Source of the DNA: Escherichia coli
GTDB taxonomy: Bacteria; Pseudomonadota; Gammaproteobacteria; Enterobacterales; Enterobacteriaceae
Assembly: GCF_036507355.1 (NCBI RefSeq)
Contig: NZ_AP027877.1
Length of the DNA: 64,000 nt
Direction: 5' to 3' (one strand)
Of the stretch, positions 2,058 through 58,584 are shown piece after piece (position 1 is the first letter of the stretch; the number at the start of each line of letters is the position of its first letter). Under the pieces are notes generated by a model that was not told the DNA's origin, ran no database searches, and was given only the letters and a program-made list of their open reading frames with translations. A program made the translations under genes and the position numbers.

Positions 2058-2085
2058 AAAATGGCGCCTTTTACAGCGCCATTTT
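2056..2085. terminator. Bidirectional hairpin terminator between convergent yddM and fdnI
   Basis: AAAAATGGCGC-loop-GCGCCATTTT perfect inverted repeat flanked by A/T runs on both sides. Confidence 0.5.
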
Positions 2086-2106
2086 CAGCTTAAAGTTCAA
2101 AAGAGA

Positions 2107-2760
2107 TTATATCCCTTCTTCACTCTCTTTTTTCGCTTCTGCCTTCTCGATTTCACGATACCAGCGTGGATGGTGTTTCTTAGCCCAGCGACGGCTCACC
2201 TTCCCTTCGATCATCCCTTTAATCGATCCTTTCACCCAGAATGCCATATACATATGGATCAGGATGGCGTGGATCAGGATGATACCCGCAGCCGCGTGGA
2301 TCAGCAGGCTGTAGCGAACAACCTGCATCGGGAAGTACTGCGCAAAGTACGGACGCCAGATAATCACCCCGGTCACCAGCAGCACGAAAATCATGCTCAT
2401 GATCGACCAGAACATCATCTTTTGCCCGGCGTTGTACTTACCAACATCCGCCACTTTATGCTCATTGCCTTTCAATACTTCGACAATGTTCAACAGCCAC
2501 GGAATATCTTTCTTATCCGGGATGTTGTGATGCACAAAACGCACAAACATAAACATCAGTGCGACGAAAATCGCAATGCCGAAGAATGGGTGCAAAATGC
2601 GTCCCATCTGCGGCGTACCGAAGGTTTGCGTCAGCCATTGCAGCGTCGGGAAGAAGAACGAAATCCCGGACAGCGCCACCAGGAAGAAGCAAATCACCAC
2701 GGTCCAGTGACAGGCGCGATCAATAAATTTGGTGCGCACAATCATTTTCGACTTACTCAT
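2107..2760 (-). CDS. fdnI: Formate dehydrogenase-N gamma subunit (cytochrome b556)
   Basis: 217-aa membrane protein from [12 protein letters not shown]; overlaps fdnH stop by 8 nt. Confidence 0.9.
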
Positions 2761-3637
2761 GATGATCCTCCTCGTCATCGTCCACTTCCTTATTCGGGCC
2801 AATACCGATGTAGTGGAAAATCAACCCGGCAAAAGTGGCAATAAAGCCAGCCGCTGCCAGCGGTTTCAACGCGCCTTTCCACAGGCTTACCGAGGTGTCG
2901 ATCTTCGGATCTTTCGGCAGACCGTGATACAGCTCCGGCTGATCGGCGTGATGCAGCACGTACATAACGTGCGTACCACCGACCCCTTCCGGGTTGTAGA
3001 CGCCAGCATGTTCGTAACCACGCGCTTTCAGTTTCGCCACGCGCTGTTCCGCCAGCTCCAGCATCTCCTTCTTGGTGCCGAAGTGGATAGCCCCGGTCGG
3101 ACAGGTTTTCACACAAGCCGGTTCCTGGCCGACGCTGACGCGATCGACGCAGAGCGTGCATTTATATACCCGGTTATCCTCTTTGTTGAGGCGCGGAATA
3201 TTAAACGGACACCCGGCAATGCAGTAACCACAGCCGATGCAGTTTTCCGACTGGAAATCGACAATCCCGTTAGCGTACTGAATGATTGCACCAGCAGACG
3301 GGCACGCCTTCAGGCAGCCGGGATCTTCACAGTGCATACAGCCGTCTTTACGGATCAGCCACTCCAGCTTGCCGTTCTGTTCGGTTTCGCTAAAGCGCAT
3401 CACCGTCCAGGACTTGGCGCTCAGATCGGCGGGGTTATCGTAAACCCCGACGCAGTGCCCCACTTCATCACGGATGTCGTTCCACTCCGAACACGCCACC
3501 TGACAGGCTTTACAGCCGATACAGGTGGAAACGTCGATAAGTTTTGCGACTTCTGCTTTGTAATCACGCACCTGAGAAGGCGGCGTGATGGAGTTAGTTG
3601 CGGACCTTTTGATAATGTCCTGCGTTTCCATAGCCAT
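2753..3637 (-). CDS. fdnH: Formate dehydrogenase-N beta subunit (4Fe-4S)
   Basis: 294-aa ORF with multiple CxxCxxCxxxCP ferredoxin motifs; synteny. Confidence 0.9.
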
Positions 3638-3649
3638 CTGTTCGCCCCC

Positions 3650-6600
3650 TTACGCCTTCTCGATGTTGACTAAGAACGCTTTATATTCCGGCGTTTGCGA
3701 GTTTGCATCACCGACATTCGGCGTCAGAGTGTTAGCGATATAACCTTTACGCGCGACACCCTCAAAGCCCCAGTGGATTGGAATACCCACCGTTTCAACC
3801 TGCTGACCATTTACATTCAGCGGTTTCAGACGACGCGTTACCACAGCCACCGCGCGGATAAAGCCACGCTTGCTTGAGACAGTGACACGATCGCCATTAT
3901 TAATGCCTTTCGCCGCCGCCAGCGTTTCGCTGATTTCCACAAACTGTTCCGGCTGAGCAATTGCGTTGAGCAATGCGTGCTTGGTCCAGGTGTGGAAGTG
4001 CTCGGTCAGACGATAGGTCGTACCCACATACGGGAACTGCTCTTTTTTACCCATCCGCAGTGCGTCTTGTTCATACAGACGAACAACCGGGTTAGACACC
4101 ACGTTCGGATGCAGCGGGTTAGTGCCCAGCGGCGTTTCAATCGGCTCGTAGTGTTCCGGGAACGGACCTTCCGCCATTTTGTTGATGGCAAACAGGCGTC
4201 CCATCCCTTCCGGCTGCATGATAAACGGCCCGGTTGGCGTACCCGGTGCGGCATTGCCGAAGTCAGGAATATCGTTACCCGTCCACTTGCTGCCGTTCCA
4301 CTGGATCAGCATCCGTTTCGGATCCCACGGTTTACCGTTGATATCCGCCGAAGCACGGTTGTACAGCACGCGACGGTTGAGCGGCCACGCCCAGGCCCAT
4401 CCCAGCGTATTCCCCAGACCGGACGGGTCGGAGTTATCGCGGTTAGCCATCTGGTTGCCCTGCTCTGTCCAGCTACCGGTGTAGATCCAGCAAGAAGATG
4501 CGGTTGTACCGTCATCACGCAGATGCGCAAAGCTACTCAGCAACTGACCTTTCTTCGCAATCAGCACGCCATTAGCATCATAGAGATCTTCCAGCGCATA
4601 GCCGTTGTTCTCTTTTGCCACTTCGTCAGATTGCGGTTCGTGCGGCTGCTTGTAGTTCCAGCTCATCTTCATCAGCGGTTCTACGCCTTTACCACCTTCG
4701 GCCTGGTACAGCTCGCGCAGATGATGGTAGATACCCGCCAGAATTTCGCCGTCGTTACGCGCTTCGCCCGGCGCGTCCTGACCTTTCCAGTGCCACTGCA
4801 ACCAGCGACCGGAGTTAGCGATAGAACCATCTTCTTCGGCAAAGCAGGTCGAAGGCAGACGGAATACTTCAGTCTGAATAGACGCCGGATCGACATCGTT
4901 CGACTCGCCGTGGTTCTGCCAGAAGGTAGAGGTTTCAGTCACCAGCGGATCGATAACCACCATGTACTTCAGTTTGCTCAGGCAGCTCACCACTTTGTTT
5001 TTGTCCGGGAAGGACGCAACCGGGTTAAAGCCCTGGCAGAAATAACCGGTGACTTTGCCTTCGTCCATCATGTTGAAATACTTGATGACGTCGTAGGTCT
5101 GGTCCCACTTCGGCAGCCAGTCATAGCCCCAGTTGTTCTCTTTCTGCGCGGCATCGCCATAGAAAGATTTCATCAGGCTAACGAAGAACTTCGGATAGTT
5201 GCTCCAGTAGTTCACCTGACCAGCCAGCGTTGCTTTCGGCGTGTTCGCTTCCAGATACGACTGCAAATCAACCTGTTTTTCTGACGGCAGCGTCAGATAA
5301 CCTGGCAGGCTGGTAGAGAGCAGGCCTAAGTCAGTCAGCCCCTGAATGTTGGAGTGACCACGCAATGCGTTCACGCCGCCACCGGCCATACCCATGTTAC
5401 CGAGTAGCAACTGGATCATCGCCATAGTACGGATGTTCTGCGCACCCACGGTGTGCTGCGTCCAGCCCAGCGCGTACAGGAAGGTGGTTGTGCGATCCGG
5501 TGCGCTGGTGGAGGCCAGCACTTCACACACTTTCAGGAAGTCGGCTTTTGGCGTACCGCAGATGTTTTCAACGACGTCCGGCGTGTAGCGGGAAACGTGC
5601 TCTTTCAGCAGGTTCCACACACAGCGCGGATGAGTCAGTGTTTCATCGCGTTTTGCATAGCCGTTTTCATCGAACTGATAGTTCCAGGACGATTTATCGT
5701 ATTGCCGTTTTTCAGCGTCGTAGCCGCTGAACAGACCGTCTTCGAAAGCAAAATCATCACGCACCAGCAAGCTGGCGTTGGTGTAATGCTTAACGTATTC
5801 AGCGTTGATTTTGTTGTTTTCGATCAGGTAGCGCAAAACGCCAGACAGGAACGTAATGTCCGTACCGGAACGAATAGGTGCGTAAATATCCGCTACAGAA
5901 GCGGTACGCGTAAAACGGGGATCGACAACGATCAAGGTTGCATCGTTGTTGTTTTTCGCTTCCATCGCCCAGCGGAAACCGACGGGATGCGCTTCAGCAG
6001 CGTTACCGCCCATTACCATTACGACGTTAGCGTTTTTGATATCCACCCAGTGGTTGGTCATCGCACCGCGACCAAATGTTGGAGCAAGACTTGCTACCGT
6101 TGGTCCGTGTCAGACGCGCGCCTGGTTGTCTACCGCCAGCATCCCGAGGGAGCGGGCAAATTTCTGGGTCAGCATCCCGGTTTCGTTGCTGGCACCGGAA
6201 GCACACAGCATACCGGTAGAAAGCCAACGGTTTACCGTTACGCCCTGCTCGTTCTTTTCAATAAAGTTAGCGTCACGGTCAGCTTTCATCAGCTTCGCAA
6301 TACGGGAGAATGCTTCTTCCCAGCTAATGCGCTGCCATTTGTCAGAACCTGGCGCACGATATTCCGGGTAGCGCAGACGGTTTTCGCTGTTGACGTAATC
6401 CAGCAAACCGGCCCCTTTCGGGCACAGCGCACCACGGCTTACCGGATGATCCGGGTCACCTTCAATGTGATAAATCGCTTCTCTGGCGTTTTTCGCGCCA
6501 TCACCCAGGCTATACATCAATAGCCCGCAACCTACGGAACAGTATGTGCAGGTGTTACGGATCTCTTTAGCGCGTAATAATTTGTAGTTTCGCGCCTGAG

Positions 6601-6697
6601 CCAGTGCTTGCTTCGGGGCAAAGCCCAATGCCGCTACTGTTGTTCCAGCCATACCGCCCGCGCAGATTTTAAAAAATTGTCTGCGACTGACGTCCAT
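3650..6697 (-). CDS. fdnG: Formate dehydrogenase-N alpha subunit, selenocysteine-containing (in-frame UGA at 6110-6112 read as Sec)
   Basis: Two same-frame ORFs (6697-6110 and 6061-3650) separated only by a TGA; Tat signal MDVSRRQFFK; total 1015 codons as in FdnG. Confidence 0.9.
6065..6112 (-). promoter_or_regulatory. Selenocysteine UGA codon plus downstream SECIS-region of fdnG mRNA
   Basis: In-frame TGA at codon 196 of fdnG; bacterial SECIS elements lie immediately 3' of the UGA (fold not computed). Confidence 0.6.
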
Positions 6698-6761
6698 TGC
6701 TTTCCTCTTTTTTCAGGGGTATTACTGCGCGAGGAAACTAACAGTAAAATTCTGAATCTTT

Positions 6762-6775
6762 TTGCGCGAAATCAA
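6762..6775 (-). promoter_or_regulatory. Putative FNR binding site of the fdnG promoter
   Basis: On the fdnG strand reads TTGATttcgCGCAA, a near-consensus FNR half-site pair (TTGAT-N4-ATCAA), about 70 bp upstream of the fdnG start. Confidence 0.5.
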
Positions 6776-6928
6776 AAAGAACACGTGTTTGCCACAAAAT
6801 AATCCGCCTTCGCAAATTGACCTACCTCAATAGCGGTAGAAAAACGCACCACTGCCTGACAGGCCAGTTAAAAAAATGCTATAAAATTCAGCTTAATTTT
6901 TAACGGCAAAAGAGACAAAACAGCGAGC

Positions 6929-7810
6929 ATGACACGACAAAAAGCAACGCTCATAGGGCTGATAGCGATCGTCCTGTGGAGCACGATGGTAGGATTGATT
7001 CGCGGTGTCAGTGAGGGGCTCGGCCCGGTCGGCGGCGCAGCTGCTATCTATTCATTAAGCGGGCTGCTGTTAATCTTCACGGTTGGATTTCCGCGTATTC
7101 GGCAAATCCCGAAAGGCTATTTACTCGCCGGGAGTCTGTTATTCGTCAGCTATGAAATCTGTCTGGCGCTTTCCTTAGGGTATGCGGCGACCCGTCATCA
7201 GGCGATTGAAGTGGGTATGGTGAACTATCTATGGCCCAGCCTGACAATTCTCTTTGCCATTCTGTTTAATGGTCAGAAAACCAACTGGCTGATTGTACCA
7301 GGATTATTATTAGCCCTCGTCGGCGTCTGTTGGGTGTTAGGCGGTGACAATGGGTTACATTATGATGAAATCATCAATAATATCACCACCAGCCCATTGA
7401 GTTATTTCCTGGCGTTCATTGGTGCGTTTATCTGGGCAGCCTACTGCACAGTAACGAATAAATACGCACGCGGATTTAACGGAATTACCGTTTTTGTCCT
7501 GCTAACGGGAGCAAGTCTGTGGGTTTACTATTTTCTTACGCCACAACCAGAAATGGTATTTAGCACGCCCGTCATGATTAAACTCATCTCTGCGGCATTT
7601 ACCTTAGGATTTGCTTATGCTGCATGGAATGTCGGTATATTGCATGGCAACGTCACCATTATGGCGGTAGGTTCGTATTTTACGCCCGTACTTTCCTCAG
7701 CGCTTGCAGCCGTGCTGCTCAGCGCCCCGCTGTCGTTCTCATTCTGGCAAGGCGCGCTAATGGTCTGCGGCGGTTCCCTGCTCTGCTGGCTGGCGACACG
7801 TCGTGGTTAA
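6929..7810 (+). CDS. yddG: Aromatic amino acid exporter (DMT superfamily)
   Basis: 293-aa polytopic membrane ORF; synteny next to fdnG. Confidence 0.85.
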   Translation: MTRQKATLIGLIAIVLWSTMVGLIRGVSEGLGPVGGAAAIYSLSGLLLIFTVGFPRIRQIPKGYLLAGSLLFVSYEICLALSLGYAATRHQAIEVGMVNYLWPSLTILFAILFNGQKTNWLIVPGLLLALVGVCWVLGGDNGLHYDEIINNITTSPLSYFLAFIGAFIWAAYCTVTNKYARGFNGITVFVLLTGASLWVYYFLTPQPEMVFSTPVMIKLISAAFTLGFAYAAWNVGILHGNVTIMAVGSYFTPVLSSALAAVLLSAPLSFSFWQGALMVCGGSLLCWLATRRG

Positions 7811-8068
7811 AATAATTGCCGGGTCTACGGCCTGGCAGTTAATCAGATAAATTCCGACAATATTAAAAAATAAATTTCGAATACCAGTAATTCACTTTAT
7901 ATCTCATTTCGACTTCGATCACATATCGATAAATAATATTATTTCATCTATTTTTCTCATTGTTTTTAATCACCATTCTATTTTAAAAACAGTATGTCAT
8001 TTATAAATGACGCCGTTTAAAATTCGTTTAGAAAATACGTTTAACGATAATTAAAAGGATTCTGTTAA

Positions 8069-9169
8069 ATGAAATTAAAAATAGTTGCGGTGGTTGTAAC
8101 TGGTTTGTTAGCTGCGAACGTAGCACACGCTGCCGAAGTCTATAACAAGGATGGTAATAAACTCGACCTTTATGGCAAGGTTACCGCTCTACGTTATTTT
8201 ACTGATGATAAGCGTGACGATGGTGATAAAACTTATGCCCGTCTCGGCTTTAAAGGAGAAACGCAAATCAATGATCAAATGATTGGTTTTGGTCACTGGG
8301 AATATGATTTTAAAGGCTATAACGATGAAGCCAACGGCTCGCGCGGCAACAAGACCCGTCTGGCCTATGCTGGTTTAAAAATTAGTGAGTTTGGCTCTCT
8401 GGACTATGGTCGTAACTACGGTGTCGGCTATGACATTGGTTCATGGACCGATATGTTGCCAGAATTTGGTGGCGATACCTGGAGTCAGAAAGATGTCTTC
8501 ATGACATACCGTACCACCGGTGTAGCAACCTATCGCAACTACGATTTCTTTGGCTTAATTGAAGGGCTGAACTTTGCCGCGCAATATCAAGGCAAAAATG
8601 AACGTACTGACAACAGTCATCTTTATGGTGCAGACTACACGCGTGCCAACGGTGACGGTTTCGGTATCTCCTCAACTTATGTTTATGATGGCTTTGGTAT
8701 CGGTGCGGTATATACCAAATCCGATCGGACAAATGCGCAGGAAAGAGCCGCTGCTAATCCTCTTAATGCCTCCGGTAAGAATGCAGAACTGTGGGCCACA
8801 GGTATAAAGTATGATGCCAACAACATCTACTTTGCAGCTAATTACGCTGAAACATTAAACATGACCACCTATGGCGATGGTTATATCTCGAACAAAGCAC
8901 AAAGTTTTGAAGTGGTGGCGCAATATCAATTCGACTTCGGCTTGCGCCCATCACTCGCTTACCTGAAATCGAAAGGCAGAGATCTGGGCCGCTACGGCGA
9001 CCAGGACATGATTGAGTATATCGACGTTGGTGCGACGTATTTCTTCAACAAAAATATGTCGACCTATGTTGATTATAAAATCAACCTGATTGATGAAAGC
9101 GACTTTACCCGTGCCGTAGATATTCGCACCGATAACATCGTCGCAACGGGCATTACCTATCAGTTCTAA
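8069..9169 (+). CDS. yddL: General porin of the OmpC/OmpF/OmpN family (intact counterpart of the K-12 yddL pseudogene)
   Basis: 366-aa ORF, signal peptide ending [20 protein letters not shown]-terminal YQF; position between yddG and the LRR genes. Confidence 0.75.
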
Positions 9170-9182
9170 CATCCTCTCCTGA

Positions 9183-9208
9183 CCAGCCCTTCTCTGGGCT
9201 GGTTTTTG
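9183..9208 (+). terminator. Rho-independent terminator after the porin gene
   Basis: CCAGCCC-ttctct-GGGCTGG stem followed by TTTTT. Confidence 0.55.
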
Positions 9209-9338
9209 ATTTAAGTGCTGCTGTATGACTCCTTAAGTAAAAATGAGCAATTTTTGATATTTCTGGTCATTCACCTCAATTAATATTATTCCATACCCTC
9301 CGGGGACATCTTACTATAATATTTATTGATGAGTGATT

Positions 9339-10598
9339 ATGACCAATATTAATACAGCTTGTGTAAAAAATAATGCCAGTTATCAATTTAATAACGCATC
9401 AACTAACAAAGAAACCATCTCCAGCAATTTTTGTGAACGACTAGAACAATGGGGTAATAAGTCGATTAATAATGGTGAAGAAAGAGCAATTGCCGTGGAG
9501 CGAATTAAAGAAGCTTACAATTCGAACATGGCATCTCTTGATTTGTCATATCTTGATTTGAGTGAGTTGCCGCCTATCCCTTCGACAGTTAATACGTTAA
9601 ATCTGGAAAACAATTGTCTAACTTGTCTTGACTTTGCTGACAATGCTAGTCTCGTCAATATCAACCTCAGCTTTAATAAAATTAACACGATAACCTTTCC
9701 AAATGAATCAAATCTGGAAAACATTTATATTGATCATAACAATCTGGAAAGTTTAGATTTAAAAAATCAGCATTCATTGGTTAATCTGGAAGCGCAAAAT
9801 AATAACCTAAAAAAAATTAATATTTCTGATAGTCATAAACTGAAATTTCTTAATCTTGATTATAACAAACTATCATCACTGGATGTCTCCCGGCAAGAGT
9901 CTCTGATTGAGTTAAGTGCCCATCACAATATGATCACTGACCTTATATTACACAATCATCCCAGGATGAAAACAATCACTTTAAACGACAACCATATTGC
10001 ACATTTAAACACCAAAACCACTACAAAACTTGAATATTTAAACTTAAGCAATAACAATTTATTGCCAACCAATGACATTGATCAACTAATATCATCAAAA
10101 CATCTTTGGCATGTATTAGTTAACGGCATCAACAATGATTCACTTGCACAAATGCAGTACTGGACTGCAGTAAGAAATATAATTGATGACACTAATGAAG
10201 TGACCATTGATTTATCTTATAATCTGGCAATCACAAATATCGATACCAGTGATGAACATCTTGTAGAAGTAAGCGATAATTCCGAAGGTAATTATATAAA
10301 AGACAATGACTCAATGTCTATTCGTTATAGATCCAAATATTATTCCAGAGAGTATACCTTAATAGAAGAAGAAACAATATTTTCTGACGCAGAATTAAAA
10401 GCTATTCTGCCTATGCGTCGCATGTACGGGGTTGGTGACTATAAGTCAAATTCCTCTTCTCTATCCTCACACTCGGGGCTCAAGGACCCAACGGGCACAC
10501 CCGTCTGTTATTATATTCATAATGAGAGTAAACCTTCCTTAGGTTATGGTCCAACATGCAATAATTGGTTAAGCCAATCCTTTACAACAGAGTTATAA
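9339..10598 (+). CDS. yddK: Leucine-rich repeat protein with IpaH/YopM-like N-terminal cap
   Basis: Repeating LxxLxLxxNxL units of ~20-22 aa; N-terminal W..W...EER..AV.RIKE..........LDLS.L.L..LP pattern; low GC; synteny (start could also be GTG 9333). Confidence 0.65.
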   Translation: MTNINTACVKNNASYQFNNASTNKETISSNFCERLEQWGNKSINNGEERAIAVERIKEAYNSNMASLDLSYLDLSELPPIPSTVNTLNLENNCLTCLDFADNASLVNINLSFNKINTITFPNESNLENIYIDHNNLESLDLKNQHSLVNLEAQNNNLKKINISDSHKLKFLNLDYNKLSSLDVSRQESLIELSAHHNMITDLILHNHPRMKTITLNDNHIAHLNTKTTTKLEYLNLSNNNLLPTNDIDQLISSKHLWHVLVNGINNDSLAQMQYWTAVRNIIDDTNEVTIDLSYNLAITNIDTSDEHLVEVSDNSEGNYIKDNDSMSIRYRSKYYSREYTLIEEETIFSDAELKAILPMRRMYGVGDYKSNSSSLSSHSGLKDPTGTPVCYYIHNESKPSLGYGPTCNNWLSQSFTTEL

Positions 10599-10660
10599 AA
10601 CACATCCTGATTTATCAAGGGTGATAAATCAGAAAAACATTGTATTACTACGGAGCAGTT

Positions 10661-56878: not shown

Positions 56879-57472
56879 TCATTTTTTACGTGCCAGCATC
56901 GTGGCGAAACGCAGTTTAATACGATTACCGTTGGCGTCGGTGCGGTGCAGCTCGCCGACGTCTTCATTGTATTTCACCATCTCCCAGCCTTCGTAATATC
57001 GACGTAATTCTCTCTCTTTGAAGGCAAACGGGAAGCCGACGGTACATGGATAATCAGCGGTATCCATCGCCGCCACAATCAGGTTGTAACCGCCAGGTTT
57101 CGTGCAACGTTGCATATTGGCAATCAGCCCTGGGATGGTTTTAGCCTCAAGGAACATCAGCACCACAGTCGAAAGAATAAAATCGTACTGTCCAGCAAAT
57201 GTGAGGTTATTCAGATCAACGACCCGAGTGTGTAAATTATCCAGATTTTCAATAGATTTAATGCGCTCGACGTTGGCGATACTCATGGCATTTTTATCCC
57301 ATGCGTCAACATCATAACCATTGGCTGCCAGGTAAAGACTGTTACGACCATTGCCACAGCCCAGATCCAGCGTTTTACCCGGTTTAACCACTTTCACCGC
57401 TTCCAGTACTTCAGAGTGTGTGCGGGTTAATTCATATTTATCAGTAAAATAGTTTTCGTCACGAATGATCAT
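56879..57472 (-). CDS. tehB: Tellurite methyltransferase (SAM-dependent)
   Basis: 197-aa ORF with SAM-binding motif [11 protein letters not shown]. Confidence 0.9.
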
Positions 57473-58461
57473 TCTTTGTCCTCTGCTTTCATTAAAACGG
57501 CGCGCTCGGTTCTGACTAACAATTTTCCCTGCATCAGAAGTGCAAAAGTACGGATGAGCAGTATTGCAATAATAAAATTGGTAAAGATAAACAGCGGCAC
57601 CGCCAGCGTATGGAAAAATCCATTATCGCTGCCACTCCCCAGATGCAAACCGGTGGTTGCCAGTGCAGATACGCCGAACGAGAAACTCCAGAATGAAGCA
57701 TTAAATGGCTGGGAGAGATACCATGGCATCAGACGTAGCATAAACAGCAGTTGCAGCAGTCCATAACCGAAAAGCATTTTCGCCAGCGTGTCACCCTCGC
57801 CGCCGTTGACGCTCAGCCAGGCACTACAGGCCACCAGCGCAGGAGCGAGCTGAATGCCGAGTGATGTCCGCAGTGCCGTGGGTAATTCTCCCGAACTGCG
57901 CAGACGCTGCAAGATCACCGGTTCAAGGCTTAGCCATGAGAAAACGCCTGCGCCTAAAAACACCAGACCGGCGTCGGTGTAGCCCAACGCACCACAGGCC
58001 ATTGCGCTGATAAAGTTGTTGGCAACTGTCGGCAGATACAGTCCAGGCGTGGTAGCTTCTTCAGGGTGAGATCCGCGCCATAATCCCGCAGTTTGCCAGG
58101 CGGCATAAGCCAACTGAACCACGACACCAAAACTGAACAGGCACACCGCCAGTGGGCGAAACCACGGAACAAAACCAATCGCCACCAGCATCGTCGTTGC
58201 CGGAAACAAACTCACAAAACTGCTCAGCACTGGATGGCGAACTTCCGCCAGCACGCTATGCGGAAAGCGTATGAGTCGGGCAATAAATGCGCTAGTCAAT
58301 AATCCCCAGATGATCATCGCCAGAATCACCAGCCCATCCCCTAACCAGTGGCTGACCTGCCAAACCTGGCTGGCATAGCGCCAGGCAAATCCCATCCCTA
58401 TCGTCCCCAACACAATACCAAAGTAGCCTGCCGGCAAATTGAGCACTTTATCGCTCTGCAT
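57469..58461 (-). CDS. tehA: Tellurite resistance / dicarboxylate exporter family membrane protein
   Basis: 330-aa membrane ORF from [15 protein letters not shown]; ATGA overlap with tehB. Confidence 0.85.
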
Positions 58462-58584
58462 CTTCTTACTCATTTTGTTTAATTTATAAAGTATATTTGA
58501 AATGCATTTTATGGAATTTTCTCGAGCATAGCCAGAGCCGCAGAATTTGCTACGGTTATAGTAAGTCACCTGTGGGAAAACGCT

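Follow-up and report, generated by a model that had tools for sequence, protein, structure and literature searches.

The porin repertoire of a bacterium affects antibiotic entry, supplies receptors for phages and colicins, and includes vaccine antigens. In non-typhoidal Salmonella, OmpD has been reported as a target of protective antibodies. OmpD is more abundant than any other porin in S. Typhimurium (PMC4215857), and the ompD mRNA harbors sites for small RNAs (sRNAs), that of MicC being located at codons 23-26 (PMC3333887). The sRNA literature treats nmpC as the Escherichia coli counterpart of ompD (PMC3333887). The gene pair yddG-ompD has also been reported in Enterobacter hormaechei (PMC11874173). 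Here, we analyze the porin gene located at positions 8069 to 9169 of a 64,000-nucleotide stretch of E. coli DNA (contig NZ_AP027877.1 of assembly GCF_036507355.1, designated the window), which is preceded by yddG and followed by two leucine-rich-repeat (LRR) genes. We consider it very likely that this open reading frame (ORF) encodes a functional general-diffusion porin and represents yddL in its full-length form, orthologous by position to OmpD. In Escherichia, the protein probably serves as a porin that is minor or expressed conditionally.

The existence of an intact gene and its relation to yddL are already known (published in 2011, with full-length DNA annotated in approximately 1,100 genomes). 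Okeke et al. (2011; PMC3079680) reported that yddL of K-12 resembles the 5' end of z2239 of strain EDL933. They considered the form of 'O-island 62' found in enterohemorrhagic and enteroaggregative E. coli (EHEC and EAEC) to be ancestral and the island to be a marker of phylogroup D and of O157/O55 strains, and explained the K-12 form by an 'insertion of yddK'. A 2023 paper presented K-12 yddL as a possible small β-barrel protein linked to osmotic stress (PMC9976479). No paper naming yddL as the orthologue of ompD was found in the open-access literature. The OmpD orthology, the proposed minor-porin role, and the three population states of the locus reported below are modest refinements of this knowledge.

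Results

An uninterrupted porin gene with the determinants of export, assembly, and pore formation

The ORF (8069 to 9169, plus strand) starts with ATG and encodes 366 amino acids, with no internal stop codon or frameshift in a program-made ORF list. A Shine-Dalgarno sequence (AAGGA, 8055-8059) is located 9 nt upstream from the initiation codon. The intergenic region separating yddG from the porin gene (7811 to 8068, plus strand, 258 bp), which is kept in K-12, comprises the 5' leader and the putative promoter, a site at 7994-8023 (ATGTCA-18-TAAAAT) that matches the consensus only weakly (9 of 12 positions). Downstream from the gene, a Rho-independent terminator (9181 to 9209, plus strand) consists of a hairpin (9181-9204), whose 9-bp stem includes 6 GC pairs, and of a T run downstream. 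The predicted folding energy of the terminator RNA was -18.2 kcal/mol (z = -4.85), and none of 200 shuffled sequences was as stable.

Pfam family PF00267 (Porin_1) spans residues 27-366 of the protein and is matched over its entire length (positions 1-337 of 337; 448.8 bits, E = 1.9e-134). Residues 22-366 were aligned by phmmer with the complete mature chains of the solved porins OmpK36, OmpC, OmpF, and PhoE (E values from about 1e-127 to 1e-100). The latter alignment, together with the K-12 porin precursors, delineates a 21-residue signal peptide (8069 to 8131, plus strand) with n-, h-, and c-regions, for which cleavage is predicted before AEVYNK (...AHA/AE) by comparison with the mature OmpC, OmpF, and PhoE chains. 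The mature porin (8132 to 9169, plus strand) comprises 345 residues plus the stop codon and, according to Pfam, AlphaFold2, and Foldseek, would form a 16-strand β-barrel. It ends with ATGITYQF, and the terminal phenylalanine provides the aromatic β-signal for assembly by the β-barrel assembly machinery (BAM). A preliminary interpretation of the window based on its letters (the sequence-only reading) had proposed an intact ORF of 366 residues that begins with a full signal peptide, ends with YQF, and precedes a strong terminator. All these features were recovered here, and the uninterrupted ORF, the full-length Porin_1 match, and a comparison of eight alleles (see below) reveal no frameshift missed by eye.

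The AlphaFold2 model contains 16 strands and a short helix in loop L3 (residues 121-127); it was built from a shallow alignment and its mean predicted local distance difference test (pLDDT) score of 68.6 corresponds to moderate confidence only. Foldseek matched the model to OmpC, OmpK36, and OmpF with template modeling (TM) scores of 0.85-0.91 (0.85/0.90 for OmpC, entry 2j1n). None of the solved structures was more than 60% identical to the window porin. The PEFGGD motif of the constriction loop L3 (residues 131-136; 8459 to 8476, plus strand) is invariant with OmpF, OmpC, PhoE, and OmpD. Alignment with K-12 OmpF, OmpC, PhoE, and OmpN showed that the equivalents of K16, R42, R82, R132, D113, and E117 (OmpF numbering) are all conserved, and Y102 and Y106 are likewise present. 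The constriction residues are of the OmpF type and are the same in the window porin and in OmpD, including K80, which is replaced by W in OmpC and OmpN.

These features suggest that the protein would be exported by Sec and then inserted in the outer membrane in a BAM-dependent manner, YQF being the usual signal for BAM assembly. By analogy with the solved porins, it presumably trimerizes to form water-filled channels that would conduct solutes. Loop L3 would fold into the lumen, placing the basic cluster opposite to the acidic L3 residues as in the OmpF constriction, and the resulting eyelet would allow non-specific diffusion of small hydrophilic solutes.

The closest relatives are porins of the OmpD/NmpC type

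The closest homologues of the window porin are porins of Citrobacter (73-78% identity, including 77.6% for the C. koseri porin) and OmpD (72-73%, the Salmonella protein being 73.5% identical). NmpC is 68.7% identical, within a range of 67-70% for NmpC and Lc. Lower values were obtained for the K-12 proteins OmpN (62.0%), OmpC (61.7%), OmpF (60.6%), and PhoE (59.2%). In a neighbor-joining tree based on Kimura distances (200 bootstrap replicates), the window porin was located inside a clade comprising OmpD, NmpC, Lc, and porins of the yedS locus, with 100% bootstrap support, and OmpC, OmpN, OmpF, and PhoE were located outside. The sequence-only reading had called the protein OmpC/OmpN-like. This description holds at the family level, since OmpC, OmpN, OmpF, and PhoE share with the window porin the Pfam family, the 16-strand fold, the PEFGGD motif of L3, and the C-terminal YQF. 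It does not hold for the nearest relatives, which are OmpD of Citrobacter and Salmonella (72-78%) and phage NmpC/Lc (67-70%). The four K-12 porins also differ from the window porin by their loci and regulators.

It is scarcely credible that the gene arose by relocation or duplication of ompC or ompN, although the annotation might suggest it. The NCBI annotation pipeline (PGAP) designates the syntenic gene ompC in all the full-length genomes listed, and the window protein scores 496.1 bits with the NCBIfam model NF007841 ('porin OmpC'), above the cutoff of 484. However, this model is broad, as OmpN (593.8 bits), OmpD (533.1), and NmpC (526.4) also pass, and true OmpC reaches 751.7. The PGAP symbol is thus explained by a broad subfamily model whose cutoff is just passed, and the RefSeq name 'ompC' for an OmpD-type gene is generic over-naming. 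OmpC and OmpN are less similar to the window porin than OmpD or NmpC, they are excluded from its clade with 100% bootstrap support, and the locus contexts are different: true OmpC is found in ompC-micF-rcsD and OmpN in ompN-micC-ydbK, and the window porin is in neither. The identity values, the tree, and the profile scores therefore rule out relocation of ompC or ompN. As a consequence of the over-naming, two genes called ompC are found in genomes that have the intact gene, as exemplified by the syntenic copy at positions 6001-7101 of L002.

NmpC (of prophage DLP12) and Lc (of lambdoid phages) belong to the same clade but are prophage-borne, at another locus, and have a signal peptide of another type (MKKLTVAISAVAASVLMAMSAQA). 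In contrast, the window porin is chromosomal and has an OmpD-type signal peptide (MKLK.VAV.VT.LLAA...A). A phage-borne porin was ruled out, as a tblastn search against 50,697 phage records returned no more than 69.6% identity and no phage gene flanks the porin gene in the window.

Branching within the OmpD/NmpC clade was poorly resolved, the grouping of the window and C. koseri porins being supported at only 58.5%, a limitation due in part to mosaic porins in the database (P0001, P0097, P0108, and P0114). One of these, P0001 (365 residues, from a metagenome), is chimeric: its first 125 residues or so resemble OmpC/OmpK36, and the rest almost matches the window porin, a single conservative change being visible by eye. 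This protein results either from natural recombination or from faulty assembly. Relatives from E. fergusonii that are 68% identical to the window porin (P0056 and P0052) are encoded at a different locus, in tandem with a 351-residue porin (positions 6369-9113 of L007/L008). From its neighbors (vsr, an HD-domain gene, and DrpB), we take this locus to be yedS, presumably another porin locus that is a pseudogene in K-12 and intact elsewhere.

The porin gene occupies the ompD slot

In the window, the gene order is fdnG (minus strand), yddG (plus), porin (plus), two LRR genes, and narU. The upstream neighbor that defines the ompD slot, yddG (6929 to 7810, plus strand), encodes an aromatic amino acid exporter (NCBIfam NF008676, 472 bits). 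For OmpD of Salmonella and the porin of C. koseri, the order is fdnI-fdnH-fdnG (minus), yddG (plus), porin (plus), GFA, a smvA-like major facilitator superfamily gene (minus), TetR, narU, and narZ. E. albertii harbors the pair yddG-porin in the same slot. Approximately 190 nt upstream from the start of the window gene can be aligned with the ompD leader of Salmonella and C. koseri and contain an invariant GATCACA block. OmpD of Salmonella (STM1572), Citrobacter, and Enterobacter thus shares with the window porin its slot, 72-78% identity, and a clade with 100% bootstrap support. The two forms of the locus differ upstream from the gene (258 bp of intergenic region versus 524-568 bp in the OmpD relatives of Salmonella and C. 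koseri) and downstream from it (LRR effector genes versus GFA-smvA-smvR).

Because the yddG-adjacent synteny is shared, which we consider as settling the matter, the window porin (yddL) is best regarded as orthologous by position to OmpD of Salmonella, Citrobacter, and Enterobacter. The E. coli positional orthologue of ompD is yddL rather than nmpC, which departs from the statement in the sRNA literature (PMC3333887).

Upstream from yddG, the Rfam scan of the whole window identified the selenocysteine insertion sequence (SECIS) of fdnG (RF01989, 84 bits; 6057-6115, minus strand) and nothing else, in particular no structured RNA near the porin gene. The fdnG gene appears as two ORFs (3650-6061 and 6110-6697) because an in-frame UGA selenocysteine codon separates them. 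No second porin was detected in the window; the other 366-residue ORF (57469-58569) is tehA.

The porin gene is distinct from the adjoining LRR DNA

Two LRR genes follow the porin gene. LRR1 (9333 to 10598, plus strand, 34.0% GC) is intact and encodes an EspR2-like protein (Pfam LRR_4/LRR_8, with a weak match to SlrP). LRR2 (10640 to 11914, plus strand, 33.1% GC) encodes an EspR1-type LRR protein, a putative effector of the type III secretion system (T3SS), based on Pfam LRR_4/LRR_8 and on the PGAP name espR1 in syntenic genomes. In O157 Sakai, the LRR genes are EspR1 and a split EspR2' (ECs2074/2075; PMC5931665). Thus, LRR1/EspR2 is intact in the window, as in EAEC 042 and unlike O157. ECs2074 was considered as the locus tag of the porin gene and rejected, as it corresponds to EspR2' (PMC5931665). 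Several genomes display varied deletions or fusions between the LRR paralogues, such as Z1002, which lacks positions 9620-11236 of the window. At this locus, LRR genes were called neither in Salmonella and C. koseri nor in the E. albertii strain that was analyzed. Based on this distribution, on the low GC content (33-34%), and on the PGAP designation T3SS effector EspR1, it is reasonable to conclude that the LRR genes were horizontally acquired, as the sequence-only reading had proposed.

An extension of this conclusion to the porin gene would hold that it arrived with the AT-rich 'O-island 62' and its LRR genes, or derives from a lambdoid gene of the lc/nmpC type, and is therefore not ancestral. 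Okeke et al. (2011; PMC3079680) regarded the whole island as recently acquired. The GC content of the porin gene (44.7%) is below that of its flanks (about 50% in yddG and narU), its branch is long, its synonymous divergence from E. albertii is high, and phage-borne relatives exist. However, the adjacency of yddG and the porin gene and an alignable leader are found in Salmonella and C. koseri, and E. albertii, in which no LRR gene was called, shares the adjacency as well. The GC content of the porin gene is far from that of the LRR genes, the best phage match is limited to 69.6% identity, and neither phage nor mobility genes flank the porin gene in the window. Horizontal acquisition of the porin gene is accordingly very unlikely in our view. 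The porin gene is ancestral at the slot between yddG and narU and separate from the acquired LRR DNA, a view that contradicts acquisition of the whole island as proposed by Okeke et al.

yddL, yddK, and yddJ of K-12 are remnants of two deletions

The K-12 locus (positions 1-6284 of L001) matches positions 2070-8352 of the window at 99.06% identity. The portion of the porin gene surviving as K-12 yddL (b1472), identified by blastn, junction inspection, and the MG1655 annotation, is located at 8069 to 8352 (plus strand) and corresponds to nucleotides 1-284. Its first 93 residues are identical to those of the window protein and are followed by KNL and a stop codon. The match of the N-terminal region to the K-12 fragment, which the sequence-only reading had proposed, is therefore correct, and the two genes share the locus and the promoter region. 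Beyond 8352, the alignment is no longer colinear and jumps to 9891-10216, within LRR1, and then to 10858, within LRR2. The first jump corresponds to a deletion of 1.54 kb (8353 to 9890, plus strand) that removed 817 bp from the 3' end of the porin gene, the terminator, and 558 bp from the 5' end of LRR1. Its junction is located at a CGGCAA microhomology, and the boundaries are ambiguous by these six nucleotides. The second deletion (approximately 10217-10857) occurred at a microhomology of 11-12 bp (ATTGATTTATC). The second deletion joined the central part of LRR1 to the greater part of LRR2 and thereby made the chimera K-12 yddK/yddJ (positions 6276-7645 of L001).

In the MG1655 annotation, these remnants bear the names yddL, yddK, and yddJ; they result from two deletions and not, as stated in PMC3079680, from an insertion. 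A 601-bp K-12 probe spanning both junctions was contiguous, with at least 99% identity, in approximately 3,168 records. The shared contiguous double junction therefore identifies the K-12 truncation as a single inherited event. The K-12 stump comprises the signal peptide, approximately 72 residues, and KNL-stop, and cannot form a barrel, whereas the window gene is complete. Thus, K-12 yddL is a stump, in contrast to recent papers that proposed a small outer-membrane protein of four strands.

Three states of the locus coexist in E. coli

The porin gene was compared by megablast to 5,426 complete E. coli genomes. A match was obtained in 4,267 of them, and full-length DNA, as defined by coverage, was present in 1,111 (about 20%). 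The K-12-type truncation, retaining only nucleotides 1-281 or 1-284, was found in about 3,150 genomes (about 58%). PGAP names the full-length copies 'ompC: porin OmpC' and the truncated ones, annotated as incomplete, 'yddL: porin'. In about 1,152 genomes (about 21%), yddG was matched but nothing was matched past position 7899. According to alignment, the segment absent from these approximately 1,150 genomes (7900 to 12051, 4,152 bp) comprises the porin promoter, the porin gene, and both LRR genes. In strain 81009 (L022), the 4,152-bp deletion is clean, and narU directly follows yddG.

Other alterations were more sporadic. A nonsense allele, E78* (GAA to TAA at the equivalent of window position 8300; positions 1210-2310 of L025), was present on many contigs. 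A fusion deletion generated a porin::LRR1 protein (P0005). In E. albertii CP034213.1 (positions 6137-8014 of L024), the porin gene is interrupted by IS1. At least five independent inactivations of the porin gene have therefore occurred in Escherichia, namely the 1.54-kb deletion, the 4,152-bp deletion, E78*, the porin::LRR1 fusion, and the IS1 insertion.

Among intact copies, z2239 of EDL933 (O157:H7) and orf1601 of EAEC 042 are the same gene as that of the window, the O157:H7 alleles displaying 98.5% DNA identity and two amino acid differences. The window protein is identical to those of O145 RM9872 and SCU-102 (RefSeq WP_000768396.1). For the 5.3-kb region extending from 6900 to 12200, the best complete E. 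coli genome in the collection was 98.7% identical to the window.

Intact alleles are constrained but evolved faster in Escherichia

Eight intact E. coli alleles, with synonymous divergence (dS) of up to 0.18, were compared. Third-codon positions accounted for 53 of the 60 variable sites, and only six residues varied. Pairwise ratios of nonsynonymous to synonymous divergence (dN/dS) ranged from 0.00 to 0.14 and were mostly between 0.01 and 0.04, values similar to those of the neighboring yddG. After removal of IS1, the E. albertii copy is a perfect 366-codon ORF with a dN/dS of 0.029 relative to the window gene. By these measures, the intact alleles are under strong purifying selection.

These values bear on the possibility that the gene only looks intact and is dispensable or silent, decaying toward the pseudogene state seen in K-12. 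The gene is absent or truncated in about 80% of complete E. coli genomes, was inactivated independently at least five times, and has a weak codon bias, and no published expression data were found. However, the dN/dS values, both within E. coli (0.01-0.04) and relative to E. albertii, indicate that the gene is as constrained as yddG, with six variable residues in eight alleles. In addition, the determinants of pore formation, assembly, and export are all intact, as are the promoter region, the Shine-Dalgarno sequence, and the terminator. We therefore consider a silent gene unlikely.

The dS between E. coli and E. albertii was 1.47 for the porin gene, about twice that of yddG (0.77), both genes having a similarly weak codon bias. 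This difference may stem from alleles that diverged long ago or from recombination at the porin gene. In a relative-rate test with Salmonella as the outgroup, 46 replacements were specific to Escherichia and 11 to C. koseri, an approximately fourfold difference (chi-square = 21.5). Fourteen of the 46 Escherichia-specific replacements affected sites that are invariant in 21 other members of the clade. The latter replacements were mostly conservative and located in barrel strands (H42R, Q76H, F100Y, F105I, L255F, and others). The dS of the porin gene to Citrobacter and Salmonella is saturated.

Codon usage and predicted sRNA pairing suggest a minor porin

The effective number of codons (Nc) was used as an indirect proxy for abundance. 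With an Nc of 51.0, the window gene resembles yddG and narU and lacks the strong codon bias of the major porin OmpD (35.7 for Salmonella ompD and 33.6 for the C. koseri gene). For comparison, the values were 29.0 for ompC, 37.1 for ompF, 40.4 for ompN, and 46.3 for phoE. The fraction of C-ending NNY codons was also lower in the window gene (0.42) than in the Salmonella and C. koseri genes (0.67-0.78).

Pairing with the K-12 sRNAs MicC, RybB, and SdsR was predicted with RNAduplex, and its significance was evaluated against shuffled sequences. For Salmonella ompD, the duplex energies were -20.8, -19.1, and -33.5 kcal/mol, respectively, and only a fraction of 0.010-0.015 of the shuffled sequences performed as well. 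As a control, the MicC duplex fell on the published codons 23-26, and the RybB and SdsR duplexes were located in the early coding sequence. The MicC and SdsR duplexes of both Salmonella and C. koseri exceeded those of shuffled sequences (fraction of 0.005-0.04); for RybB, the corresponding fractions were 0.015 and 0.075, the C. koseri duplex being less distinct from shuffled sequences. For the window gene, the energies were -11.9 (MicC), -14.3 (RybB), and -24.2 kcal/mol (SdsR), and fractions of 0.68, 0.20, and 0.23 of the shuffled sequences were as good. Thus, RNAduplex detected none of the MicC, RybB, and SdsR pairing sites of ompD above the level of shuffled sequences in the early coding sequence of the window gene. 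Taken together, the faster change, the weak codon bias, the apparent loss of sRNA sites, and the shorter upstream region suggest that the Escherichia orthologue of OmpD has probably become a minor porin or one with conditional expression.

Discussion

In the scenario that we favor, the Escherichia lineage kept the porin gene under purifying selection while its sequence changed faster, and the codon bias associated with a major-porin role was apparently lost along with the pairing sites for MicC, RybB, and SdsR. The gene has been lost repeatedly: the 1.54-kb deletion was inherited by genomes of the K-12 type, the 4.15-kb deletion affects another large group, and a nonsense mutation, a fusion deletion, or an insertion of IS1 is found elsewhere.

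Several considerations weigh against the assignment of the gene as an intact, ancestral, and probably minor OmpD. The 1,111 full-length genomes were counted by DNA coverage with unverified ORFs, and at least one lineage among them carries E78*. The lower GC content of the porin gene (44.7% versus about 50%) and its doubled dS leave room for an allelic replacement at the locus, which may be old. The moderate pLDDT of the structural model limits the confidence in the fold, and the 58.5% support for the grouping with C. koseri limits that in the branching order within the clade. The arguments derived from sRNA pairing and codon bias are computational, and searches of the open-access literature for data on expression, proteomics, or conductance of the intact gene returned none, the only hits being Okeke et al. 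(2011) and unrelated mentions.

A further interpretation, which is possible but which we hold only tentatively, is that yddL, rather than the prophage gene nmpC, is the true E. coli orthologue of OmpD, demoted to a minor, differently regulated porin, and that the three-state polymorphism (20/58/21%, plus sporadic knock-outs) reflects a trade-off. If so, this trade-off would shape lineage-specific permeability, susceptibility to antibiotics, bile, or phages, or antigenicity. It would also parallel the loss of ompD in S. Typhi and in carbapenem-resistant E. hormaechei. Present in about one fifth of the complete genomes of E. coli, O157:H7 and O145 strains among them, the porin is a candidate that may contribute to lineage-specific differences in permeability.

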